Virus record (IMG/VR): IMGVR_UViG_2703718829_000006
Location: 1-14,341 of that record
Length of the DNA: 14,341 nucleotides
Reading direction: 5' to 3' (one strand)
Source of the DNA: a virus
Lineage: Duplodnaviria > Heunggongvirae > Uroviricota > Caudoviricetes
How positions within the stretch are numbered: the stretch's first letter is position 1; the number at the start of each line of letters is the position of its first letter. The notes under the pieces are model-generated. The model saw nothing but the letters and a program-made list of their open reading frames with translations, searched no databases and had not been told where the DNA came from. Positions 1-14,341 of the stretch are shown one piece after another. The translations under genes and the position numbers were made by a program.

Positions 1-1170
1 GTGGCCCTCAGTGATACCAAACTTCGTAGCATCAATGGTAAGCCCTACAGCGGCGCACCCGAAGTCACAGATGGTGACGGTTTGAGTGTGCGTATTACTC
101 CGACTGGAACGATTACATTTCAGCATCGATATCGCTGGAACGGTAAGCCTGTTCGCCTCTCTGTCGGCCGGTATCCTGCAATGTCCCTCAAAGAGGCCCG
201 CGTTATCGTCGGTGAGATGCGCGAATTGTACCTCAAGGGGCTAAACCCTAAAAATTATTTTGCCAAAGAAGATGGCGAGCTAACGCTCAAAGAGTGCCTG
301 GATCAGTGGTGGACTAAGTATGTTGAAACGCTGAAGCCTAATACCCAGACGCTGTATAAGTCGGTTGTGTACAACACCATGTACACAGAGTTCCCGGACG
401 CACCGGTCGTAAACATCCCCGTTTCGGCTTGGGTAAGGTTCTTCGACAAGCAGGAGAAGAAAAACGGGAAAAAGGCTCGGGTGCTGCTGCTCCAACTCCG
501 ATCCGTAATGAACTGGTGTATCAGCCGTCAGCTGATCCCTTCGTGCGAGGTGCTGAAACTCAGCGTTAAGACCATCGGCAAGAAACCAGACGTTGGTAGC
601 CGGGTACTCACTTATACCGAGCTGGCAAAAATCTGGTTAGCGCTGGAAAACAATAAGGTCGTTAGCTCCAATAAGGTTCTTCACCAGTTGCTGTTGCTCT
701 GGGGTGCGCGATTATCCGAACTGCGCCTGGCCACCGCAAGTGAGTTCAATATGGGCGATCTGATTTGGACGACGCCAGCCGAGCATTCCAAAATGGGAAA
801 TGTTATTCGTCGGCCTATATTCGACCAGGTTAAACCTTACATTGAAAGGCTTCTCAATGCTGGGAACGATATTCTTTTCCCGGGTCAGGAACTGGACAAG
901 GCTATAGATCGCTCCTCAGCCAATCTCTACATGAAAAAGTTAAGGGATAAAATTGATATACCGGAATGGCGAACCCACGACTTCAGGCGTTCTCTGGTAA
1001 CGAATTTGTCAGGGGAGGGGGTTATGCCCCATGTCACTGAAAAGATGCTGGGGCATGAACTTGGTGGTGTGATGGCGGTGTATAACAAACACGACTGGCT
1101 GGTGGAGCAGAAAGACGCTTATGAGCTTTATGCCGATAAAGTGTTCTGGCACGTCAAACAGCTCGGTTAA
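1..1170 (+). CDS. Tyrosine recombinase / phage integrase, P4-like family. It starts with GTG at the first base of the window, so the true 5' end and any upstream att/tRNA cannot be seen.
   Basis: 389-aa ORF. The N-terminus (MALSDTKLR...GDGLSVRITPTGTITFQHRYRWNGKPVRLSVGRYPAMSLKEAR) is typical of the arm-binding domain of P4-type integrases. The C-terminus has the catalytic-core pattern HDFRRS...GHELGG...AVYNKHDW with a terminal tyrosine. Confidence 0.9.
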   Translation: MALSDTKLRSINGKPYSGAPEVTDGDGLSVRITPTGTITFQHRYRWNGKPVRLSVGRYPAMSLKEARVIVGEMRELYLKGLNPKNYFAKEDGELTLKECLDQWWTKYVETLKPNTQTLYKSVVYNTMYTEFPDAPVVNIPVSAWVRFFDKQEKKNGKKARVLLLQLRSVMNWCISRQLIPSCEVLKLSVKTIGKKPDVGSRVLTYTELAKIWLALENNKVVSSNKVLHQLLLLWGARLSELRLATASEFNMGDLIWTTPAEHSKMGNVIRRPIFDQVKPYIERLLNAGNDILFPGQELDKAIDRSSANLYMKKLRDKIDIPEWRTHDFRRSLVTNLSGEGVMPHVTEKMLGHELGGVMAVYNKHDWLVEQKDAYELYADKVFWHVKQLG

Positions 1171-3312: not shown

Positions 3313-4223
3313 TGGGTAACCTCTTCAAATTTGGCTTTACACTTGGCGTAAACGGCCTGAACCTCTTGCTGTAGGCGCATTCCTGCGGTCATTTTGTAGG
3401 CCGTCTGGAAATGGGTTTTGAGGTCATTCATGTTTTCTGCCTGCTTCATGTCTTCGCAAAGCGAGCGGACGGTGTTAATCAGCTCTTGCTCAGCGTTTTC
3501 TTTCGACTGGATAACTTCACTTTCAGGCGTGTAAGACATAACCGGTTCGGTAAAAATGCCTTCGCTCTCGTTAAGCATGTCCACGGCATTATCGAGACGG
3601 TCAGCGCGCGGCCAGTATTTATAGGCGCGCTTCACGATCGTCTTTCGGGCCATCTCAGACCAGAAGTTGACCCAGGGGCCTTTCGGGGATGTACCGGCTT
3701 TACTCACCTTCCTGATTTCTTCAATTTCGGCGATGCTCATCTCTTCAGTCAGGTAGTCGCCGTCTGATGTTTTAACTGTGCAGTAGCCTCCGATAACGGC
3801 GCCACGCTCTTCAGGTGTGGCGAATGGGTTGTATTTGTGGGCCGGTGCTTTATCGAGGCCAATAGTTTCGTAAGCGTCGTTCGCATGAACCAGCTTGCAT
3901 TGGCCCCACTTAATGACGCCGGCTGATTGGGCTATATGCAAAAGCCCCATATAGCTGATATCAAGGCATACCATGCCGTCACGCGGTACTAAGTAGGCCA
4001 GCTTGCTGGCAGGGTTTAAGCTGATCCCAACCGCTGCCACGTTAATGATTGCGTTCTGAGCGCTGACAGGATTGCTAACTGCCGTTTTGGCTAACGTGTC
4101 ATTGCGCTGAAATAGCTGAATCGCAAACTGGCACTCTTTTGCCCATGTCAGGCTCTGGTCAGTAAGAGCGCTGGTAAACAGCGGCTCTTGCTGTTTAACG
4201 AACTGAATAAGATCGAAGCTCAT
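3309..4223 (-). CDS. recT: RecT-family single-strand annealing recombinase.
   Basis: 304 aa. The block [24 protein letters not shown]...AVDMLNESE closely parallels the conserved RecT block of Rac RecT (GPWVTHWEEMAKKTAIRRLFKYLP...AVSMDEKE). Confidence 0.9.
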
Positions 4224-4516
4224 AGCCCCTCCTCAATGTTGACTTGATGCCGGGCAATGACTTCCACCATGTAGCGCACGTTTTCCGCCATGCGCTCCTG
4301 AAACTCAACATCGTCATCAAACGCACGGGTAATGGCTTTTTTGCTGGCCCCGTGGCGTTGCAAATGATCGATGCATAGCGATTCAAACAGGTGCTGGGGC
4401 AGGCTTTTTTCCATGTCGTCTGCCAGTTCTGCCTCTTTCTCTTCACGGGCGAGCTGCTGGTAGTGACGCGCCCAGCTCTGAGCCTCAAGACGATCCTGAA
4501 TGTAATAAGCGTTCAT
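4220..4516 (-). CDS. gam: Gam, host RecBCD nuclease inhibitor (short GamS-length form).
   Basis: The 98-aa product ([37 protein letters not shown]...) is nearly identical, as recalled, to the C-terminal short form of lambda Gam. 4-bp overlap with recT. Confidence 0.9.
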
Positions 4517-4592
4517 GGCTGAACTCCTGAAAATGGCTGTGAAAATATCGCCCGCGAAATGCCAGGCTGATTAGGAAAACAGGAAAGGGGGG

Positions 4593-4799
4593 TTAGTGAT
4601 TCAGGCCGTTACCGCGTCCGTCGAGAAAAACTTCCACGAGCAAATCACGGGTATAAGTGCGCTCGATGCCGCGATGCAGATAAAGCCGTCCGCGTAAATT
4701 AGCTGATGCAGTCCAGGTACCATCTTTGTGTTTGACCAGCATTCCTGGCATGACCGCGCCGCGATTAACGGTCTGTGTTCCGTAATGTTGATGAACCAT
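4593..4799 (-). CDS. Hypothetical small protein in the kil/cIII position upstream of gam. The start is uncertain: the ORF is open up to a TTG at 5003.
   Basis: The ATG at 4799 is preceded on the minus strand by AGGAG with a 5-nt spacer, giving a 68-aa product (MVHQHYGTQTVNRGAV...). The longer 136-aa frame starts at TTG with no Shine-Dalgarno and has an arginine-rich N-terminus. No family recognised. Confidence 0.4.
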   Translation of the reverse strand: MVHQHYGTQTVNRGAVMPGMLVKHKDGTWTASANLRGRLYLHRGIERTYTRDLLVEVFLDGRGNGLNH

Positions 4800-5052
4800 A
4801 AAAACTCCTGCCCGTAAGCTGGGCTGCTGAACATATAGAGACTTCTGCGCGTATTCAGGCGGTGGATGGCCGCCGGTTGTCATAACTAAGCCGCCTCGTT
4901 GAAGCGACTGAGGTATGAAATGTTGAGTTAATTTCAGCTGGTCACACCGACGTTCACGCGTCCGTTTCACCCCTCGCACTCCCCGAAGCCTGCCGAAATT
5001 CAAACTGCGGATCTAAGCGGTCATCGCAACGGTGAATCAGGTAGTTGCCGTA

Positions 5053-5135
5053 TCGTTGTGTTGTTGCGACGAACTTATTTAAAACTATAGTTGTTTTATC
5101 GTCAACAACAAAAGTTGTTTTATTGGTTGTTTTAG
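5053..5135. promoter_or_regulatory. Putative OL operator / pL region: a cluster of GTTGTT-containing repeats.
   Basis: Direct copies of RGTTGTTTTA at 5089-5098, 5113-5122 and 5125-5134, another GTTGTT at 5060-5065, and an inverted AACAAC at 5104-5109. The same motif recurs in the cI-cro intergenic region. Confidence 0.45.
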
Positions 5136-5245
5136 ATATAACTGATTGTATTTAGGATGGATTTATTTTGTGACTTGAATCGCATAGCGATAACTGAAGC
5201 GAGGTTATGGTGGTTTTTTTAACGGTGTGTGTGATGAGGGGAGGG

Positions 5246-5273
5246 CAAAAGAAAACCCGGCACGGTGACCGGG
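5246..5273 (-). terminator. Putative intrinsic terminator downstream of cI.
   Basis: Plus-strand sequence CCCGG-cacggtga-CCGGG is preceded by caaaagaaaa. On the minus strand this reads as a hairpin followed by a T-rich tract, about 120 nt past the cI stop. Confidence 0.45.
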
Positions 5274-5394
5274 ATTCTTACGCCGTTAGGTAAAGATATT
5301 ATTGCGGTGGCTTAATATTACTACCTAGAGCAAAGATAGGAATTAGTTCTTTACTGAATGAGCACAATGCCCAGTTGATAATTTTTAATTGGTA

Positions 5395-6084
5395 CTACCC
5401 ATGCTTCCTATATGTCTGCGGCATGCTCCCAATAACCTTACCGAAGATGAACACCCGGTTCATCTCGTCTTTCTCGATCGGGTCCCACGGTGAGTAGCTT
5501 TTGTTATCAGAGATGACCAGCAGCTTATCCTTCATCATTTGCAGGCGCTTTACATGGGCTGTGTCGTCGTACAGAAACGCATAGATACCATCACCGTCGA
5601 AAGATTTAACTGTGATATCAACGAACAGCAGATCACCTGGTTCGATCGTTCCTGACATGCTGTCACCACGCACGTTAATGATGCGGATATTTTCCGCCTT
5701 CCTACCATCGAACATGTGACGAGCATCGTCAAACGAGTACTCAACCGAGCGTAGAACTTCTACAAACTCACGGTTGATGACTCCCGGCCCAGCACTGACT
5801 TCTATATCAAGAACGTCAATCTTGAAGTATTTGGAATGGCTGACAGTTGATTGTATTGGTTGCACTGTACTGTCTGACATATTTCCAACGCCAGAAGATA
5901 ACCATTCTGCGCGCACACCCAAAGCGTTCGCGATCTCCACGATTTTAGTTGTTTGATTAGCTTTCCCTGTTTCGATTTTCTGAATAGCAGCCTGGCTAAC
6001 CCCGACCAAATCCCCAAGCGCCTTTTGTGTAAGGCCTCGCGCTAATCTGGCTTCTTTAAGTCTTTCTGAGAGTGTTGTTTTCAT
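5395..6084 (-). CDS. cI: CI-like prophage repressor (N-terminal HTH plus C-terminal S24 LexA-like autopeptidase domain).
   Basis: HTH region LSERLKEARLARGLTQKALGDLVGVSQAAIQKIETGK. The C-terminal domain has GDSM (catalytic Ser) and a VKRL lysine typical of S24 self-cleaving repressors. Start placed at the ATG at 6084; the ORF is open up to 6150, but that upstream ATG lies inside the operator palindrome. Confidence 0.88.
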   Translation of the reverse strand: MKTTLSERLKEARLARGLTQKALGDLVGVSQAAIQKIETGKANQTTKIVEIANALGVRAEWLSSGVGNMSDSTVQPIQSTVSHSKYFKIDVLDIEVSAGPGVINREFVEVLRSVEYSFDDARHMFDGRKAENIRIINVRGDSMSGTIEPGDLLFVDITVKSFDGDGIYAFLYDDTAHVKRLQMMKDKLLVISDNKSYSPWDPIEKDEMNRVFIFGKVIGSMPQTYRKHG

Positions 6085-6161
6085 AGTCCAAATGTACAAC
6101 CAAGGTTTTATTCTATCAAACGAAAATGGTTGTTGACTAAAAACAACCATAGTTTTAATCT
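6072..6161. promoter_or_regulatory. Putative OR operators and pR promoter between cI and cro.
   Basis: 25-bp dyad ATGGTTGTT-gactaaa-AACAACCAT at 6126-6150. A further GTTGTTTT at 6074-6081 abuts the cI start codon. A -35-like TTGACT at 6133-6138 and a -10-like TAATCT at 6156-6161 lie upstream of the cro Shine-Dalgarno GGAGG. Confidence 0.5.
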
Positions 6162-6188
6162 TGATTCAAATTAACCACGGAGGTTGTT

Positions 6189-6419
6189 ATGAACCCAGCT
6201 ATCAAAACAGCGATCAATATCGTTGGTTCACAAAAGAAACTGGGCGCTGCTTGCGAAGTTTCACAGCAGGCCGTCTATAAGTGGCTTCACAACAAAGCAA
6301 AGGTATCCCCTGAACATGTCGGCAGCATTGTTACGGCTACTGGTGGAGTAGTGAAGGCATACCAGATTCGCCCGGATCTTCCGAAGTTGTTTCCACACAC
6401 CGAAAAGAACGCAGCTTAA
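6189..6419 (+). CDS. cro: Cro-like HTH regulator (YdaS/Cro family).
   Basis: 76 aa, divergent from cI, with a strong GGAGG Shine-Dalgarno. HTH segment QKKLGAACEVSQQAVYKWL. Position and pattern match YdaS-type Cro analogues. Confidence 0.8.
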   Translation: MNPAIKTAINIVGSQKKLGAACEVSQQAVYKWLHNKAKVSPEHVGSIVTATGGVVKAYQIRPDLPKLFPHTEKNAA

Positions 6420-6488
6420 ATTTCCATTTCACGCTCTTTAACAATAAGCAATCAACTTAACAGTCAATTCAAACTAAAGGAGTCAATT

Positions 6489-7028
6489 ATGCAACCACTT
6501 CCATACCAACAGACTAGCGGATTTAGCCCGACTGCGGTGATAAATCGTTCTCAAACAAAACAGGTGCTAGGCCACGAAAAAATCCGTGATGCCGTCCGCG
6601 CCTGGTCGGCTGTAGATAATCAGGATGTCGTTGCCACACTCATTGTGAATGAGTATCGGGAGCAGGGCGGCGGCACCATCGATTTCCCTGATGATGTCAG
6701 CCGTGCACGCCAGAAGCTGTTCCGCTTCCTCGATAACAAATTCGATTCTGAAAAATACCGAAATAACGTGCGTGAACTGACCCCGGCAATTCTGGCGGTA
6801 CTACCGCTGGAATATCGCGGTTACCTGGTTGAGCAGGATAGCTTCATGGCTAGGTTGGCTGAAATGGAAAAGGAACTCAGTGAGGCAAAACAGGCTGTCA
6901 TTCTCAACGCACCACGCCACCAGAAACTGAAGGAAATTAGTGAAGGTATTGTGTCGATGTTTCGTGTGGACCCAGATCTGGCTGGTCCATTGATGGCGAT
7001 GGTTACTACCATGCTGGGGGCGATATGA
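6489..7028 (+). CDS. YdaT-like protein in the cII position (putative CII functional analogue).
   Basis: 179 aa with an AAGGAG Shine-Dalgarno, immediately after the Cro/YdaS-like gene and before O. Motifs EYREQGGG and LTPAILAVLP resemble YdaT-family proteins, as recalled. Confidence 0.55.
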   Translation: MQPLPYQQTSGFSPTAVINRSQTKQVLGHEKIRDAVRAWSAVDNQDVVATLIVNEYREQGGGTIDFPDDVSRARQKLFRFLDNKFDSEKYRNNVRELTPAILAVLPLEYRGYLVEQDSFMARLAEMEKELSEAKQAVILNAPRHQKLKEISEGIVSMFRVDPDLAGPLMAMVTTMLGAI

Positions 7029-7114
7029 CAGGTTCAGAAATGGCGAAAGCCGGTCTGCTGGAACAGAACCGACTTTCAGGTGCAAATCGTAACACACTCA
7101 TTGCGGGAGGAATT

Positions 7115-8044
7115 ATGGCAAACACTGCTGAGATATTCAATTTTCCAGTGCCGGATGCGGCACAAAAGGAGCCGCGCGTGGCAGATCTCGATGATGGTTA
7201 TACGCGCATTGCAAATGAGTTGCTGGAAGTTGTGATGCTGGCCGGATTAACACAGCACCAGCTTCTGGTCTTCCTGGCTGTCATGCGCAAAACATATGGT
7301 TTTAATAAAAAACTGGATTGGGTGAGCAACGAGCAACTGTCCGAATTGACCGGGATATTGCCGCACAAGTGTTCTGCTGCAAAAAGTGTTCTGGTAAAGC
7401 GTGGGATTTTGATTCAGAGCGGGCGGAATATCGGTATTAATAATGTGGTCAGTGAATGGTCAACATTACCCGAATCAGGTAAGAAAAATAAAGTTTACCT
7501 GAAAGAGGTAAATTTACCTGAATCAGGTAAGAAAAGTTTACCCAAATCAGGTAAAGGCGTTTACCCGAATCAGGTAAACACAAAAGACAAACTAACAAAA
7601 GACAATATAAAACCTTTTTCGTCCGAGAATTCTGGCGAATCCTCTGACCAGCCAGAAAACGATCTTCCTGTGGTGAAACCAGATGCTGCAATTCAGAGCG
7701 GCAGCAAGTGGGGGACAGCAGAAGACCTGACCGCCGCAGAGTGGATGTTTGACATGGTGAAGACCATCGCGCCATCAGCCAGAAAACCGAATTTTGCTGG
7801 GTGGGCTAACGATATCCGCCTGATGCGTGAACGTGACGGACGTAACCACCGCGACATGTGCGTGCTGTTCCGCTGGGCATGCCAGGACAACTTCTGGTCC
7901 GGTAACGTGCTGAGTCCGGCCAAACTCCGCGACAAGTGGACCCAGCTCGAAATCAACCGAAACAAGCAACAGGCTGGCGTGACAGCTAGCAAACCAAAAC
8001 TCGACCTGACAAACACAGACTGGATTTACGGGGTGGATCTATGA
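7115..8044 (+). CDS. O: Replication initiation protein O (lambda O family).
   Basis: Start placed at the ATG at 7115, preceded by GGGAGG. The N-terminal domain (VADLDDGYTRIANELLE...MRKTYGFNKK) resembles lambda O. The iteron origin is embedded mid-gene, as in lambda. The stop overlaps the start of P. Confidence 0.85.
   Translation: MANTAEIFNFPVPDAAQKEPRVADLDDGYTRIANELLEVVMLAGLTQHQLLVFLAVMRKTYGFNKKLDWVSNEQLSELTGILPHKCSAAKSVLVKRGILIQSGRNIGINNVVSEWSTLPESGKKNKVYLKEVNLPESGKKSLPKSGKGVYPNQVNTKDKLTKDNIKPFSSENSGESSDQPENDLPVVKPDAAIQSGSKWGTAEDLTAAEWMFDMVKTIAPSARKPNFAGWANDIRLMRERDGRNHRDMCVLFRWACQDNFWSGNVLSPAKLRDKWTQLEINRNKQQAGVTASKPKLDLTNTDWIYGVDL
7466..7620. repeat. Origin of replication (ori-lambda-like): five 17-bp iterons plus an adjacent A-rich region, inside the O gene.
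   Basis: TTACC-N7-GGTAA palindromic iterons at 7466-7482, 7495-7511, 7514-7530, 7538-7554 and 7561-7577, followed by the A-rich tract 7578-7620. Confidence 0.8.
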
Positions 8045-8742
8045 AAAACATCGCCGCACAGATGATTAACTTTGACCGTGAGCAGATGCGTCGGATCGCC
8101 AACAACATGCCGGAACAGTACGACGAAAAGCCGCAGGTACAGCAGGTAGCGCAGATCATCAATGGTGTGTTCAGCCAGTTACTGGCAACTTTCCCGGCGA
8201 GCCTGGCTAACCGGGACCAGAACGAACTGAACGAAATCCGCCGCCAGTGGGTTCTGGCTTTCCGGGAAAACGGGATCACCTCGATGGAGCAGGTTGACGC
8301 AGGAATGCGCGTAGCCCGTCGGCAGAATCGACCATTCCTGCCATCACCCGGGCAGTTTGTTGCCTGGTGCCGAGAAGAAGCATCCGTTAACGCCGGGCTG
8401 CCAAACGTCAGCGAGCTGGTTGATATGGTCTATGAGTATTGTCGGAAGCGTGGCCTGTATCCGGATGCAGAGTCTTATCCGTGGAAATCAAACGCGCACT
8501 ACTGGCTGGTTACCAACCTGTACCAGAACATGCGGGCCAATGCGCTGACTGACGCGGAATTACGGCGCAAGGCTGCCGATGAACTGACTTGTATGACCGC
8601 GCGAATTAACCGTGGTGAGGCGATACCTGAACCAGTAAAACAACTTCCTATCATGGGCGGCAGACCTCTAAATCGTGCACAGGCTCTGGCGAAGATCGCA
8701 GAAATCAAAGCTAAGTTCGGACTGAAAGGAGCCAGTGTATGA
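8041..8742 (+). CDS. P: Replication protein P (DnaB helicase loader).
   Basis: 233 aa, essentially matching lambda P along its length as recalled (MKNIAAQM.NFDREQMRRIANNMPEQYDEKPQVQQVAQIINGVFSQLLATFPASLANRDQNE...). Confidence 0.95.
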   Translation: MKNIAAQMINFDREQMRRIANNMPEQYDEKPQVQQVAQIINGVFSQLLATFPASLANRDQNELNEIRRQWVLAFRENGITSMEQVDAGMRVARRQNRPFLPSPGQFVAWCREEASVNAGLPNVSELVDMVYEYCRKRGLYPDAESYPWKSNAHYWLVTNLYQNMRANALTDAELRRKAADELTCMTARINRGEAIPEPVKQLPIMGGRPLNRAQALAKIAEIKAKFGLKGASV

Positions 8743-9038
8743 CGGGAAAAGAAGCAATTATTCATTACCTGGGGACGCATAAGAGCTTCTGTGCGCAGGA
8801 CGTTGCTGCGGTAACAGGCGCAACAGTAACCAGCATAAATCAGGCTGCGGCTAAAATGGCGCGGACAGGAATCTTAGTCATTGATGGTAAGGTCTGGCGA
8901 ACGGTGTATTACCGGTTCGCTACCAGGGAAGAACGGGAAGGAAAGGTGAGCACGAACCTGATTTTTAAGGAGTGTCGCCAGAGTGCCGCGATGAAGCGGG
9001 TTTTATTTGTTTATGCGGCGGCGGGAGGAAATCAGTGA
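8739..9038 (+). CDS. ren: Ren (exclusion protein Ren-like).
   Basis: 99 aa (MTGKEAIIHYLGTH.SFCA.DVAA.TGATVTSINQAAAKMAR...VWRTVYYRFATREEREGK), highly similar to lambda Ren as recalled. 4-bp overlap with P. Confidence 0.9.
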   Translation: MTGKEAIIHYLGTHKSFCAQDVAAVTGATVTSINQAAAKMARTGILVIDGKVWRTVYYRFATREEREGKVSTNLIFKECRQSAAMKRVLFVYAAAGGNQ

Positions 9039-9130
9039 GGTTGACGATAACTCGTGTCTGGAGTTATATTTTGCCCGTTGCCGCAAAATCGGCACACGGG
9101 ATTGGCGTCCCGGAATACTACTCAACGCAT

Positions 9131-9151
9131 ACCGCGTTAAGCGGTTTTTTT
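9131..9151 (+). terminator. Intrinsic terminator after ren (tR2-like position).
   Basis: ACCGC-gttaa-GCGGT hairpin followed by TTTTTTT. Confidence 0.6.
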
Positions 9152-9250
9152 ATGCGCTAAGCACGGCTACGCCCAAATTATGGTGGGCTGTGTGAGGGCT
9201 TCTTCGGGAGCGCCGGGTTTGAGTAGCCGGTTACGCCAACCTTGCACAGT

Positions 9251-9283
9251 TCACCACCAGTCGATTGGCGTCGTTGGTGGTGA
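9251..9283. promoter_or_regulatory. Perfect 9-bp inverted repeat with a 15-bp spacer, just upstream of the Bro-N gene.
   Basis: TCACCACCA (9251-9259) and TGGTGGTGA (9275-9283), about 25 bp upstream of the ATG at 9308. Could be an operator or a 5'UTR hairpin. Confidence 0.4.
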
Positions 9284-9307
9284 TGGTTAACCTGATGAGG
9301 TGATACT

Positions 9308-9916
9308 ATGACTACTCAATTAGCATTCCACAAAACGACTTTTACCCCAATTTGCCACAATAACAGAATTTGGCTTACTGCCACTGAAGTTGGTTTAGCT
9401 CTGGAATATGCGGACGATAAAGCAGTTCAGCGCATTTACTCTCGTCACTCAGATGAATTTACAGATATGATGACAAGGGTGGTCAAAGTGACCACCCCTC
9501 GTGGAATGCAGGAGTCTCGAGTATTTAGCCTTCGCGGAGCCCATTTGATCGCCATGTTTGCACGAACTCCTGTAGCCAAAGAGTTCCGTCGCTGGGTTCT
9601 GGATATTCTCGATCGAGAAGTTCAACAATCCCCAATCATAAAACAATTCACTGATAACGAACTTTGCACACTTGCTTGGTTGTGGCGAGCTGGGGATGCG
9701 ATGTTAACCGCCTGCCAGAACGTTACTCCTCTTCTTCAGGTTGCGGAGCATCGTGAAGCTGGTCGCTTCACTTCTATCGAGCAAGAATATCCCCAGATAC
9801 TCAATAAGGCACAGGCAATCCTTGCCAGAGAAACGGCACATGTAAAATTCCGGCCGTGGCAGGATGATAAGTGGAGTCGAGTTTTGCCGCATTTACGTTC
9901 GGATCGATTACAGTAG
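9308..9916 (+). CDS. Bro-N domain protein (antirepressor/Roi-like family).
   Basis: 202 aa with a GAGGTG Shine-Dalgarno. The N-terminal half fits the Bro-N fold pattern (F....NNRIWLTATEVGLALEY.D......R.......T.GG.Q....I.E.G.Y.LI..S....A..F..WV...). The C-terminal half is unassigned. Confidence 0.8.
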   Translation: MTTQLAFHKTTFTPICHNNRIWLTATEVGLALEYADDKAVQRIYSRHSDEFTDMMTRVVKVTTPRGMQESRVFSLRGAHLIAMFARTPVAKEFRRWVLDILDREVQQSPIIKQFTDNELCTLAWLWRAGDAMLTACQNVTPLLQVAEHREAGRFTSIEQEYPQILNKAQAILARETAHVKFRPWQDDKWSRVLPHLRSDRLQ

Positions 9917-10377
9917 ATTCCAATTAACAATGAGAAACACATAGCCACCCCGTGGTATTGAAACCATATAATGTTGGATTTGAAAACAGATCTTTTTCCA
10001 TGTATTAATAACTACATCCCCGCGAGTGATTCAAAAAGGAGGGCCCAATTTTGTCCGAGTTTTTGTATTCCCCCGCATGCCGCTGCGGAGCACTACATCT
10101 GAGTGTCTGACTAGGGGATAAAATTAGACTGGATAGTGAGAAGAAAGTGGCGTGCTAGGCTGTGCCGAGTGCTACCAGTACACCCTGGGGGTGTGCAGCT
10201 TTCGCCGAGACTGTAGTGGGTATCGGTTAATGCACGAAAAACCGAGAGGTCAGACAACCAATTTGCCGTAGGATTGTTTCCGGTGCGATACCGGTGTACT
10301 AACTGAAAGCAATGCGAAAAAGCATAAACTCGGTCCTTCAGTCGCCCTACACACTATTTACTAAGAAGGGCTAAAGC

Positions 10378-10734
10378 ATGGATACAATTATCACATGGAT
10401 GGGAGATCGTCTGTTGGGGTGGATAACAAACAAATCCGATCTGCGGCAGAGGGCAATCACTGGATTAACTCCTGCGATTTGTTCAACAATTTTATATACT
10501 GAAAAATTAAAACGTGGTGAGCCTAATAACCCAAACGAAGAAGAAAAACTTTATAGGCTTTGGTATGAAGCGTCTTCCCAAGTCGTAGACTTTGATCGAG
10601 AGCTGGCTAAAAGATGTTTAGATAAATCAGAATATTGGCTTCATTCTGAATTATATAGCCCTGAGAAAGTTGAAGAGCTAAACATTTCTTTGGTTGGTAT
10701 GAAGGCAACGCTTGAAGGAATAAAGCACAATTAA
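10378..10734 (+). CDS. Hypothetical AT-rich orphan protein (118 aa), accessory/moron gene.
   Basis: Clean ORF with an AAGAAGGG Shine-Dalgarno-like sequence. Visibly more AT-rich than the flanking phage genes. No recognised motif. Followed by a hairpin plus T-run at 10865-10888. Confidence 0.55.
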   Translation: MDTIITWMGDRLLGWITNKSDLRQRAITGLTPAICSTILYTEKLKRGEPNNPNEEEKLYRLWYEASSQVVDFDRELAKRCLDKSEYWLHSELYSPEKVEELNISLVGMKATLEGIKHN

Positions 10735-10864
10735 AACCTTTGATTTGCGATAATCAACTCGCCATAATCATGTCATCGGAGCCTGAACAACTCCGGTGAC
10801 TTCTGCGCTAAACGGGGACGTTTATGCGCACACACAATCCAAACTCTCTTCTCCCTCCACAGAT

Positions 10865-10888
10865 GCAGAAATGCACCTGCGTTTTTTT
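10865..10888 (+). terminator. Putative weak intrinsic terminator closing the accessory insert.
   Basis: GCAG-aaatgcac-CTGC followed by G and TTTTTTT, upstream of the ybcN start. Confidence 0.4.
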
Positions 10889-10921
10889 GCATCCAACGTT
10901 TGACCTCTGCGGAGGTGAAGC

Positions 10922-11377
10922 GTGAACCTCCCACAAGACGGTATCAAATTGCATCGCGGTAACTTCACCGCTATCGGTCAGCAGATCCAGCCTTATCTGG
11001 AGGACGGCAAATGCTTTCGCATGGTGCTTAAACCGTGGCGCGAAAGACGCAGTCTTTCCCAGAATGCACTCAGCCACATGTGGTACAGCGAAATCAGTGA
11101 GTACCTCATCAGCAGGGGGAAATCGTTCGCTACTGCAGCATGGGTAAAAGATGCTCTCAAACACACATACCTCGGTTATGAAACCAAGGACCTGGTTGAT
11201 GTCGTAACCGGCGAAATCACTACGATCCAGTCGTTACGCCATACCTCCGATCTTGATACCGGAGAGATGTATGTCTTCCTGTGTAAGGTTGAAGCCTGGG
11301 CGATGAATATTGGCTGCCGCCTGACTATTCCGCAGAGCTGCGAGTTCCAGCTGCTGCGCGACAAGCAGGAGGCGTAA
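10922..11377 (+). CDS. ybcN: NinB-family protein (DLP12 YbcN-like, described as a DNA base-flipping protein).
   Basis: 151 aa, GTG start with a GGAGGTG Shine-Dalgarno. The [12 protein letters not shown] motif matches the NinB RSL.QN motif, and the overall sequence matches DLP12 YbcN as recalled. Confidence 0.8.
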
Positions 11378-11547
11378 TGACTACACCGCTTATTCGGGTC
11401 ATGAACGGACACATCTACAGAGTACCAAATCGTCGTAAGCGTAAGCCTGAGCTGAAGCCATCCGAAATACCAACACTGCTAGGGTATACCGCCAGCCTGG
11501 TTGATAAAAAATGGTTGCGACTGGCAGCAAGGAGGAATCATGGCTGA
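11377..11547 (+). CDS. ninE: NinE (small nin-region protein, 56 aa). Not in the supplied ORF track because it is short.
   Basis: The ATG overlaps the ybcN stop (TAATG). Translation [56 protein letters not shown] matches NinE as recalled. The 3' end overlaps the ybcO start. Confidence 0.75.
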   Translation: MTTPLIRVMNGHIYRVPNRRKRKPELKPSEIPTLLGYTASLVDKKWLRLAARRNHG

Positions 11548-11830
11548 TTTGAGAAAAGCAGCGCGTGGTCGGGAATGCCAGGTAAGAATCCCTGGCGTAT
11601 GTAATGGCAATTCTGAGACGTCTGTACTGGCACATATCCGGCTGGCTGGATTGTGCGGTACCGGTATCAAACCGCCAGACCTGATTGCCACCATTGCATG
11701 TTCTGCCTGTCACGACGAAATCGACCGCCGCACACATTTTGTCGATGCTGAGTATGCAAAAGAATGCGCGCTGGAAGGTATGGCGAGAACACAGGTTATC
11801 TGGCTGAAAGAGGGGGTTATTAAGGCGTGA
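11540..11830 (+). CDS. ybcO: YbcO-like protein (DLP12 YbcO family, described as a putative nuclease).
   Basis: Start at the ATG at 11540, preceded by AAGGAGGA. The 96-aa product ([33 protein letters not shown]...[11 protein letters not shown]) has conserved Cys/His and matches DLP12 YbcO as recalled. Confidence 0.85.
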
Positions 11831-12189
11831 ATACCTACAGCATCACATTACCCTGGCCTCCGAGCAATAATCGCTATTACCGCCATAATCGCGGGCGCAC
11901 GCACATCAGCGCAGAGGGGCAGGCATACCGCGATAACGTCGCCCGAATCATTAAAAACGCAATGCTGGATATCGGCCTGGCTATTCCTGTGAAAATCCGC
12001 ATTGAGTGTCACATGCCGGATCGCCGTCGCCGTGACCTGGATAATCTGCAAAAAGCTGCTTTTGACGCACTTACCAAAGCAGGTTTCTGGCTGGATGATG
12101 TTCAGGTCGTTGATTACCGTGTTGTGAAGATGCCCGTTACCAAAGGTGGGAAGCTGGAGCTGACCATCACTGAACTGGGAGATGAATGA
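11827..12189 (+). CDS. rusA: RusA Holliday junction resolvase.
   Basis: 120 aa ([89 protein letters not shown]), near-identical to E. coli RusA as recalled. GTG start overlapping the ybcO stop. Confidence 0.95.
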
Positions 12190-12326
12190 TGTTTGAGTCT
12201 TATATGGCAGAACGTCTTCGCCGCCGCTGGGTGCGCCTGCGCTTATATCATTTTCCCGGTTCTGTTTTGACCGATTACCGAATACTGAAGAATTACGCCA
12301 AAACACTGAAAGGAGCTGCCGCATGA
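12186..12326 (+). CDS. ylcG: YlcG-like small protein (46 aa). Not in the ORF track because it is short.
   Basis: ATG overlaps the rusA stop. Translation [46 protein letters not shown]. Position after rusA matches the DLP12 gene order. The stop overlaps the start of the Q-like gene. Confidence 0.6.
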
Positions 12327-13012
12327 ATACCCAATATTTACAGTATGTCCGCGAGCAACTCATGGTGGCTACCGCTGACTTGAGCGGAGCAACGAAAGGC
12401 CAGCTTGAAGCCTGGCTGGAGCATGCACAATTTGATACTGGTACATACAAACGAAAGAAGCGACGCATTCTGGATGAGGTAACTGGCAAGATTATTATGC
12501 TGGATAATCCGCCGATTTCCGGTAAACAGTCGTACGCAAAAGGTTCATCTGTCGCCCTGATCAGTCCGGTCGAGTTTTCAACCTCTTCATGGCGCCGCGC
12601 TGTTCTGTCTCTCGATGAGCATCAGAAAGCATGGTTGCTGTGGAGTTACAGTGAAAATATTCGCTGGGAGCATCAGGTTGCCATAACGCAGTGGGCATGG
12701 AGCGAGTTTAAGACTCTGTTGGGTACCAGAAAAATTGCAGGTAAGACACTGGAACGCCTGAAGAAGTTGATCTGGCTGGCGGCACAGGATGTGAAGAGCG
12801 AACTGGCAGGGCGTGAGGCTTATGAATACCAGGAACTGGCGTCACTGGTGGGAGTGACATCAAAAAACTGGTCTGAGACATTCACTGAACGCTGGGTTGC
12901 AATGAAGCACATTTTTCTACAGCTTGATAGCGAAGCTTTATTGCTTCTAACGAGAACACGTTCAAAACAAAAGGCGACATTTTCACAGCAAAATATTGCA
13001 AAACTGGATTAA
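12323..13012 (+). CDS. Putative late-gene antiterminator (Q-like). The call rests mainly on position.
   Basis: 229 aa, immediately upstream of the late regulatory region and lysis cassette, in the Q position of lambdoid genomes. Sequence is not lambda Q, and the family assignment was not verified. Confidence 0.55.
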   Translation: MNTQYLQYVREQLMVATADLSGATKGQLEAWLEHAQFDTGTYKRKKRRILDEVTGKIIMLDNPPISGKQSYAKGSSVALISPVEFSTSSWRRAVLSLDEHQKAWLLWSYSENIRWEHQVAITQWAWSEFKTLLGTRKIAGKTLERLKKLIWLAAQDVKSELAGREAYEYQELASLVGVTSKNWSETFTERWVAMKHIFLQLDSEALLLLTRTRSKQKATFSQQNIAKLD

Positions 13013-13194
13013 AAAAGCATATATTTCATATAAATCTGATATTTTGCCAATGTTGTACGCACTGGCAGTAATCCAAATTCAAGCTCGAGGTTTAAAGCCT
13101 TGGGCTTTTCTGTTTCTGGGCGGTGAGTATCCTTCCAACGTACCCCAGCCAGGGTGTCTTCAGCTGTTGAGTTGATATTGCTTAACCCTCTGTT

Positions 13195-13220
13195 GCCAGC
13201 TACATGCTGGCTTTTTTATT
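13195..13220 (+). terminator. tR'-like intrinsic terminator in the late promoter-proximal region (the target of Q antitermination).
   Basis: GCCAGC-tacat-GCTGGC hairpin followed by TTTTTTATT, between Q and the holin gene. Confidence 0.65.
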
Positions 13221-13322
13221 CCAGGCTTGCGGGGAGCATCAACTCCGTGCTTTGTCGTTAAATTACCCCGTGAGCCTGATTTCTGACATTTAACGTCCCG
13301 GCCTTTTGTCGGCGGCGAAACA

Positions 13323-13640
13323 TTGGCTATTCATATGCACGAAAAAGAGAGCCTTGCCGGAGCGTTCTGGCTCGTTTTGCTGATCATCGCAGGTTGGGGC
13401 GGTCTGGTCCGCTACCTGATAGATGTGAAGCAGAGTAAAGCAACGTGGAGTTGGATAAATGCTCTGGCTCAGATAGTGGTATCAGGATTCACCGGTGTTA
13501 TTGGTGGCCTGATCAGCATCGAAAGTGGATTCAGTATTTACATGATTCTCGCGACAGCGGGGATTAGTGGTGCGATGGGTTCGGTTGCACTGACGTACTT
13601 CTGGGAACGACTGACAGGGGTGAAAAATGCAAAATCTTAA
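13323..13640 (+). CDS. Holin (class I, three predicted transmembrane segments) with a possible dual start.
   Basis: 105 aa from TTG at 13323, with an in-frame ATG at 13335. Three hydrophobic stretches (AGAFWLVLLIIAGWGGLV, WINALAQIVVSGFTGVIGGLI, FSIYMILATAGISGAMGSVAL) and a charged C-terminus. Directly precedes and overlaps the endolysin gene. Confidence 0.75.
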   Translation: MAIHMHEKESLAGAFWLVLLIIAGWGGLVRYLIDVKQSKATWSWINALAQIVVSGFTGVIGGLISIESGFSIYMILATAGISGAMGSVALTYFWERLTGVKNAKS

Positions 13641-14103
13641 TCCTCAGCGTAAAGCTTTCCTCGATATGGTGGCATGGTCAGAAGGAACGGATAACGGACG
13701 GCAGAAAACCAGAAATCATGGTTATGACGTCATTGTTGGCGGAGAGCTATTCACTGATTACTCCGATCACCCTCGCAAACTTGTCACGCTAAACCCAAAA
13801 CTCAAATCAACAGCCGCAGGACGTTACCAGCTTCTTTCCCGTTGGTGGGATGCCTATCGTAAGCAGCTTGGCTTGAAAGATTTCTCTCCGAAAAGCCAGG
13901 ACGCAGTGGCATTGCAGCAGATTAAAGAGCGTGGCGCTTTACCGATGATTGATCGCGGTGATATTCGTCAGGCTATCGACCGTTGCAGCAATATCTGGGC
14001 GTCGTTACCTGGTGCAGGTTACGGTCAGTATGAACATAAAATCGGTGACCTGATTGCCCGATTTAAAGAGGCTGGTGGGGTGGTAAATGAAGTTGAGCTA
14101 TAA
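13627..14103 (+). CDS. R: Endolysin, lambda R-type lytic transglycosylase.
   Basis: 158 aa (NPQRKAFLDMVAWSEGTDNGRQKTRNHGYDVIVGGELFTDYSDHPRKLVTLNPKLKST.AGRYQLLSRWWDAYRKQLGLKDF...), near-identical to lambda R as recalled. Confidence 0.95.
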   Translation: MQNLNPQRKAFLDMVAWSEGTDNGRQKTRNHGYDVIVGGELFTDYSDHPRKLVTLNPKLKSTAAGRYQLLSRWWDAYRKQLGLKDFSPKSQDAVALQQIKERGALPMIDRGDIRQAIDRCSNIWASLPGAGYGQYEHKIGDLIARFKEAGGVVNEVEL

Positions 14104-14325
14104 GCTGGTTATCGCTGCATTCTTCTTTACTGTCATCGGTTCTTTCATCTGGTCTGCCAACCACTACTACAGCAAATATCAGCACGAAAAGAAACGTGCT
14201 GATGAGGCTGTACAAAATGCTGAATCTGCAACAGCCATTACCCGTAACGTCCTGCAATCACTGCAAATCGTCAATACAGTTATAGAGGTTAACCAGCATG
14301 CAAAACAGCAGATCGCACTGGAGTC
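14087..14325 (+). pseudogene. Rz-like i-spanin, truncated after about 80 codons.
   Basis: The N-terminus has a signal-anchor TM segment (LVIAAFFFTVIGSFIWSANHYY) like lambda Rz (...LSWAVNHYR...), which is about 150 aa. The reading frame runs into IS2-like terminal sequence at 14326 and stops at the window end. Confidence 0.65.
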
Positions 14326-14341
14326 TAGACTGGCCCCCTGA
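14326..14341. mobile_element. Probable left terminal inverted repeat of IS2 (first 16 bp only), inserted in the spanin gene.
   Basis: TAGACTGGCCCCCTGA matches the recalled IS2 terminus (TAGACTGGCCCCCTGAATCTCCAGACAACC...). Only 16 bp are inside the window, so this rests on memory of the IS2 end. Confidence 0.5.

Follow-up and report, generated by a model that had tools for sequence, protein, structure and literature searches.

In the stretch of 14,341 nucleotides analysed here (referred to as the window), a lambdoid prophage of E. coli very probably has its i-spanin gene interrupted at codon 80 by a copy of IS2, with duplication of the 5-bp target GAGTC. This insertion sequence belongs to the IS3 family and measures 1331 bp in K-12; it would have transposed into codon 80 and duplicated GAGTC in doing so. 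The i-spanin is thereby cut to 80 native residues followed by RLAP, with the anchor kept and the C-terminal 46 residues lost, and the o-spanin and the downstream packaging and head genes would now be separated from the late promoter by roughly 1.3 kb more than before.

The final 16 bases of the window (14326-14341, plus strand), TAGACTGGCCCCCTGA, agree at 16/16 positions with the first 16 bases (1-16) of IS2A in E. coli K-12 MG1655 (NC_000913.3, 381260-382590). They represent the left, transposase-proximal terminal repeat of the element, as the earlier note on this DNA had proposed. The 16-mer occurs a single time in the window; over 200 shuffles, with up to 2 mismatches permitted, the mean was 0.01 matches. 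The open reading frame 14087-14341 (plus strand) is a hybrid of 84 codons, in which 80 native residues are followed by RLAP from IS2 and by a stop codon in IS2. This stop, TGA, makes up the three final bases of the window. The junction falls within codon 80, which still specifies Ser. IS2 runs on past the window end, and its transposase genes are co-directional with the lysis genes. The alignments to intact homologues stop at query position 1026, equivalent to window position 14325 (best 30 of 2,831 matching E. coli records), and the phage matches reaching the spanin gene, among them SfIV, SfV and SfII, likewise end at 14325. Thus, the interruption of the spanin gene by IS2 at the window edge, already proposed from the letters of the window, was confirmed, with homology to intact alleles up to 14325 and IS2 from 14326.

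The same junction was found in public assemblies. By exact look-up the complete 84-aa protein was detected on metagenome contigs from several studies, at least 24 in number and assembled independently of one another. A 70.8-kb metagenome contig of the ENA (L003) is 100% identical to window positions 4087-14341 and continues for 124 further bases. As expected from the proposed insertion, these bases are IS2. Together with the 16 bases of the window, 140 nt of the element could be compared with IS2A (139/140), including the start codon and the first 16 codons of insC. The difference from K-12 IS2A, A32G, was common to all six junction loci examined. This same IS2 variant at all six loci points, on sequence grounds, to one ancestral insertion behind them, which would later have spread in an E. 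coli lineage. All six loci break off inside IS2; short-read assemblies break at repeats. No match to the left junction was obtained in the GTDB species representatives (exact search), nor in IMG/VR, where the right junction did match. A search of 5,426 complete E. coli genomes did not detect the junction in any of them, and no finished assembly spans the site. The window starts with the GTG of the integrase at base 1 and closes with the stop of its last open reading frame at the final base; its edges therefore resemble gene boundaries and not a contig end.

For the right junction, the right end of IS2, a gap of 0-10 bases and the expected continuation of the gene were searched in combination. 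One IMG/VR contig (L011) was identified, which opens with the terminal 18 bases of the IS2 right end (18/18 compared with IS2A) and continues with GAGTC and then with ACAGAGAACCCAG. In E. coli ET358 and phage SfIV, whose alleles are intact, the latter sequence likewise comes directly after GAGTC. GAGTC at 14321-14325 represents the left copy of a 5-bp target-site duplication, and the copy after the IS2 right end in L011 is the other; in intact alleles this motif is single-copy at the site. IS2A of K-12 has a flanking duplication of 5 bp as well, ATTAC. The element at the site is therefore like IS2A at both ends and in the length of the target duplication, and unlike it in carrying A32G in all six copies examined. 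When the window up to 14325 was joined to L011 and IS2 and one GAGTC were subtracted, a protein of 126 aa was obtained, which is 100% identical to WP_001434542.1 (E. coli ET358). The remainder of the Rz-type gene, an intact Rz1-type gene and the target duplication, for which the earlier note had proposed to look on the far side of the element, are all found in L011.

The right junction gave no matches in the JGI metagenome contigs, a collection which apparently does not contain this lineage. L011 originates from another collection (IMG/VR) than L003 (ENA) and may come from another genome than the window. Of the element at this site, 140 nt were seen on the left; on the right, 18 nt were seen directly and 27 nt are implied by an open reading frame of 57 aa. 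The interior lies outside the sequence seen; hence, the element may be a truncated, enlarged or composite IS2. The open reading frame of 57 aa (P0016) starts at an ATG within the right terminal repeat of IS2, enters what is left of the i-spanin gene on the 3' side in its reading frame (L011 1-170), and reads MSGNIGANP followed by ESQRT. It was called by gene callers on two ENA contigs. The product would be without a membrane anchor and presumably inert.

Both halves of the split gene were also detected in a collection of 15 billion proteins. N-terminal partial proteins of 78, 79 and 80 aa (ending with IAL, IALE and IALES) occur on 25, 9 and 1 contigs, respectively (35 contigs), and C-terminal partial proteins of 47 and 48 aa (starting with SQRTQ and ESQRTQ) on 20 and 2 contigs (22 contigs). 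Both kinds are labelled "DUF2570, partial [Escherichia coli]". Accessions of N- and C-terminal partials appear in matching series (EEZ9046976/EEZ9046662, EFA6985469/EFA6983124, EHP3254196/EHP3254897 and MCN2546788/MCN2544065). From the accession numbering, each pair would be the two gene halves of one draft genome, both located where a contig ends. Intact alleles of 126-130 aa were found on at least 1000 contigs; thus, the disrupted allele is a minority variant.

The arrangement of the genes from Q to the spanin is that of a standard lysis cassette in a lambdoid late operon. The late-gene antiterminator Q (12323-13012, plus strand, 229 aa) was assigned by Pfam Phage_antiter_Q (E 7e-96). A consensus scan revealed a candidate late promoter, TTGCAA-18-TATATT, at 12996-13025 (plus strand), overlapping the end of Q, and terminator-like hairpins with T-runs at 13081-13107 and 13195-13211 (plus strand). 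The region 12996-13211 between Q and the holin may thus represent a pR'/tR'-like arrangement, located as in lambdoid late operons. The holin of LydA type (13323-13640, plus strand) comprises 105 aa when read from a TTG (Pfam Phage_holin_3_3, E 8e-22; phrog_785, E 5.5e-40); for its homologues in RefSeq, the annotated start is an ATG further downstream, giving 101 aa. An intact endolysin of lambda R type follows (13627-14103, plus strand, 158 aa; phrog_90), with 90% identity to lambda R over 158 aa. Its end is overlapped by 17 nt by the hybrid open reading frame.

The native 5' part of the i-spanin gene (14087-14325, plus strand) covers 239 of 381 nt. Its identity to intact alleles amounts to 98-100%, and its best-fitting family is phrog_214, Rz-like spanin (E 8e-22). 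A transmembrane segment (residues about 7-23) and the first approximately 57 periplasmic residues are encoded by this part; hydropathy is highest over residues 7-23, with a Kyte-Doolittle mean of 2.17, and the sequence after them is charged and polar. The reconstructed protein matches the same phrog_214 with E 2e-42 and shows 87% identity to the protein annotated as i-spanin in Shigella phage SfIV. Towards Pfam DUF2570 it reaches 22.3 bits, which is under the gathering score of 26.6. The window open reading frame lacks residues 81-126, i.e. 46 residues or 37% of the protein, including C96, the single cysteine of the intact i-spanin; the anchor is kept. Its periplasmic domain is incomplete. By sequence, the window open reading frame is a disrupted member of the SfIV/SfV-type i-spanin family, which forms its own i-spanin group in SpaninDB (Kongari et al. 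2018, PMC6139136).

A homologue of lambda Rz was also considered for this gene. BLASTP aligned only residues 8-27, within the transmembrane segment, with 7 of 20 positions identical, and the match to phrog_13 was weak (E 3.5e-5, residues 5-59 only). The lambda-Rz-like N-terminus described before is correct insofar as the anchor resembles that of lambda Rz, but the gene is not a homologue of lambda Rz. The two systems have the position in the lysis cassette and the role in common, next to an endolysin closely related to that of lambda. They differ in sequence family and in gene arrangement, lambda Rz1 being fully embedded in Rz and the o-spanin gene of the present prophage type being overlapped.

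In intact homologues there are 39 nt between the insertion point and the start of the o-spanin, which is read in the +1 frame, shares 104 nt with the i-spanin and extends beyond the i-spanin stop. Such an arrangement corresponds to the "overlapped" architecture as defined by Kongari et al. (PMC6139136). An embedded o-spanin is ruled out by this start downstream of the insertion and by the run past the i-spanin stop. L011 contains a complete o-spanin of 85 aa, 43 nt past the IS2 right end, with the lipobox LSGC and a Pfam LysC score of 64 bits (cut-off 27). It is 70% identical to the o-spanin of SfIV, and the SfIV/SfV o-spanin family is named "Mu" in SpaninDB (PMC6139136). Hence, the former assumption that the i-spanin and an embedded o-spanin are both lost holds for the broken i-spanin only; the o-spanin is overlapped and intact in L011. 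The two-component spanin of SfIV/SfV is thus similar in both proteins, in the overlapped architecture, in the use of the +1 frame by the o-spanin, and in the location of the genes directly 3' of the endolysin. In contrast, the i-spanin investigated here is interrupted at codon 80, and its intact allele has 126 aa compared with 130 aa.

Downstream of the o-spanin, L011 carries open reading frames for HNH, TerS, TerL, portal, prohead protease and major capsid proteins. The late genes are open throughout the 8.4 kb seen beyond IS2; the prophage is therefore not obviously a remnant. Two open reading frames of 208 and 117 aa without Pfam match are located on the minus strand (L011 341-1364) between the o-spanin and the HNH and terminase genes. 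Moron or cargo genes are typically found at such a position.

A two-component spanin requires each of its subunits for function (PMC6139136). Thus, no functional spanin is expected although only the i-spanin is broken, and judged from the sequence the spanin function is likely lost. With a non-functional spanin complex, holin and endolysin would still act after induction, but the outer membrane would stay whole, resulting in fragile spherical cells and poor release. For lambda, the knockout of either spanin gene was described as an absolute lysis defect in the absence of shear, with spherical cells bounded by the outer membrane (PMC6139136). Shaken flasks mask this defect unless millimolar divalent cations are added (PMC6139136). 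By analogy with this knockout phenotype, and with 46 residues and C96 lost, a spanin-null phenotype is expected for the prophage: as in lambda Rz-null phages, lysis would be blocked at the outer membrane, and release would occur only where shear or low divalent cations break the cells. Release would be impaired, and the phage would not necessarily be dead. That the prophage is lysis-impaired can fairly be inferred; the stronger reading of the earlier note, a defective prophage, goes beyond these data. In addition, IS2 carries Rho-dependent terminators, which may reduce downstream expression unless polymerase modified by Q passes them. Lambdoid Q-modified polymerase resists terminators, and a Q-dependent read-through of IS2 is plausible.

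The possibility that the insertion is real but silent with regard to lysis was considered improbable. In this case the stub of 80 residues would work, or spanins of co-resident prophages or shear would compensate for its loss, and the phage would be productive. The lysis of spanin-null lambda in shaken flasks without added divalent cations is in agreement with this, as are the many samples with the allele, the recombination patch in its O/P genes and the open late genes downstream in L011. A putative i-spanin that is naturally short and has no C-terminal helix, EE36P1, is also on record (PMC6139136). However, the loss of 37% of the protein comprises the only cysteine, and intermolecular disulfides were proposed as a general feature of spanins (Kongari et al., PMC6139136). 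Moreover, either lambda spanin knockout is absolutely defective once shear is removed, and the Rho-dependent terminators of IS2 are now located upstream of all late genes.

It is highly improbable that an IS2-associated deletion or rearrangement took place in the window's own genome, leaving a remnant that has lost the 3' part of the Rz-type gene together with the o-spanin, and perhaps the late genes too, or has them placed elsewhere. The window does end 16 bases into IS2, none of the complete E. coli genomes spans the site, and IS-flanked prophage remnants exist, e.g. in E. coli 720632 with an identical integrase cut by IS1. Against a deletion, a reciprocal junction with a perfect 5-bp duplication was found at the same nucleotide, N- and C-terminal partial proteins share matching draft-genome accession series, and the two sides joined rebuild the intact allele exactly. 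An assembly artefact or chance, meaning a chimeric contig end or 16 coincidental bases after a naturally short open reading frame, is hardly conceivable. Short-read contigs often end in repeats and the window shows only 16 bases of the element, but the shuffled sequences gave next to no matches, and the same junction recurs on the metagenome contigs of different studies with IS2 continuing to 140 bases. The abundance of intact alleles of 126-130 aa and the target duplication at the reciprocal junction are likewise not in agreement with an artefact. Thus, the insertion of IS2 into codon 80 remains the preferred explanation.

Insertion of IS elements is a routine route of prophage decay. The insertion of IS2 into a prophage gene described here is of a well-known, common type and represents ordinary prophage damage. 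It resembles the IS-disrupted genes of cryptic or decaying E. coli prophages in that a host IS interrupts a phage gene; unlike in these prophages, the late genes are still open over 8.4 kb beyond IS2. No publication on IS2 together with prophage and spanin was found in a literature search. The finding raises no new biological question. For annotation, the open reading frame of 84 aa should be regarded as an IS2-disrupted i-spanin pseudogene rather than a short DUF2570 protein. A probable impairment of the last lysis step should be indicated for the prophage, and late genes may be subject to polar effects. The allele, defined by the GAGTC target and the A32G variant of IS2, was encountered repeatedly in gut metagenomes and in draft genomes of E. 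coli and could serve as a lineage marker. It is unlikely, although conceivable, that the IS2-carrying prophage is viable and spreads IS2 between E. coli strains, by Q read-through and release through shear or co-resident spanins, or that the insertion was kept because it blunts the killing of the host while the cargo is retained. Both readings are compatible with the recurrence of the junction in many samples and with the recombination patch in the replication genes.

Further observations were made for the remaining window. The tyrosine integrase (1-1170, plus strand) starts at base 1 and is encoded on the opposite strand to the adjoining recombination genes. Bases 1-1029 are 100% identical to the integrase located beside tRNA-Arg and dsdC in E. 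coli 720632, which is cut by IS1. The location of this identical integrase suggests an argW-type integration site. The immunity region (5395-7028) is of Rac type, with an S24 repressor on the minus strand followed by genes of the YdaS and YdaT families, according to the Pfam labels of the identical genes in L003. Differences between the window and contigs with the same IS2 junction cluster in the O/P replication genes at 7771-8918 (27 in L004 and 49 in L005), and the lysis region is identical. These differences look like a recombination patch gained after the insertion. A Bro-N/P22 antirepressor-like gene (9308-9916), also assigned by the Pfam label of the identical gene in L003, is located in the nin region.
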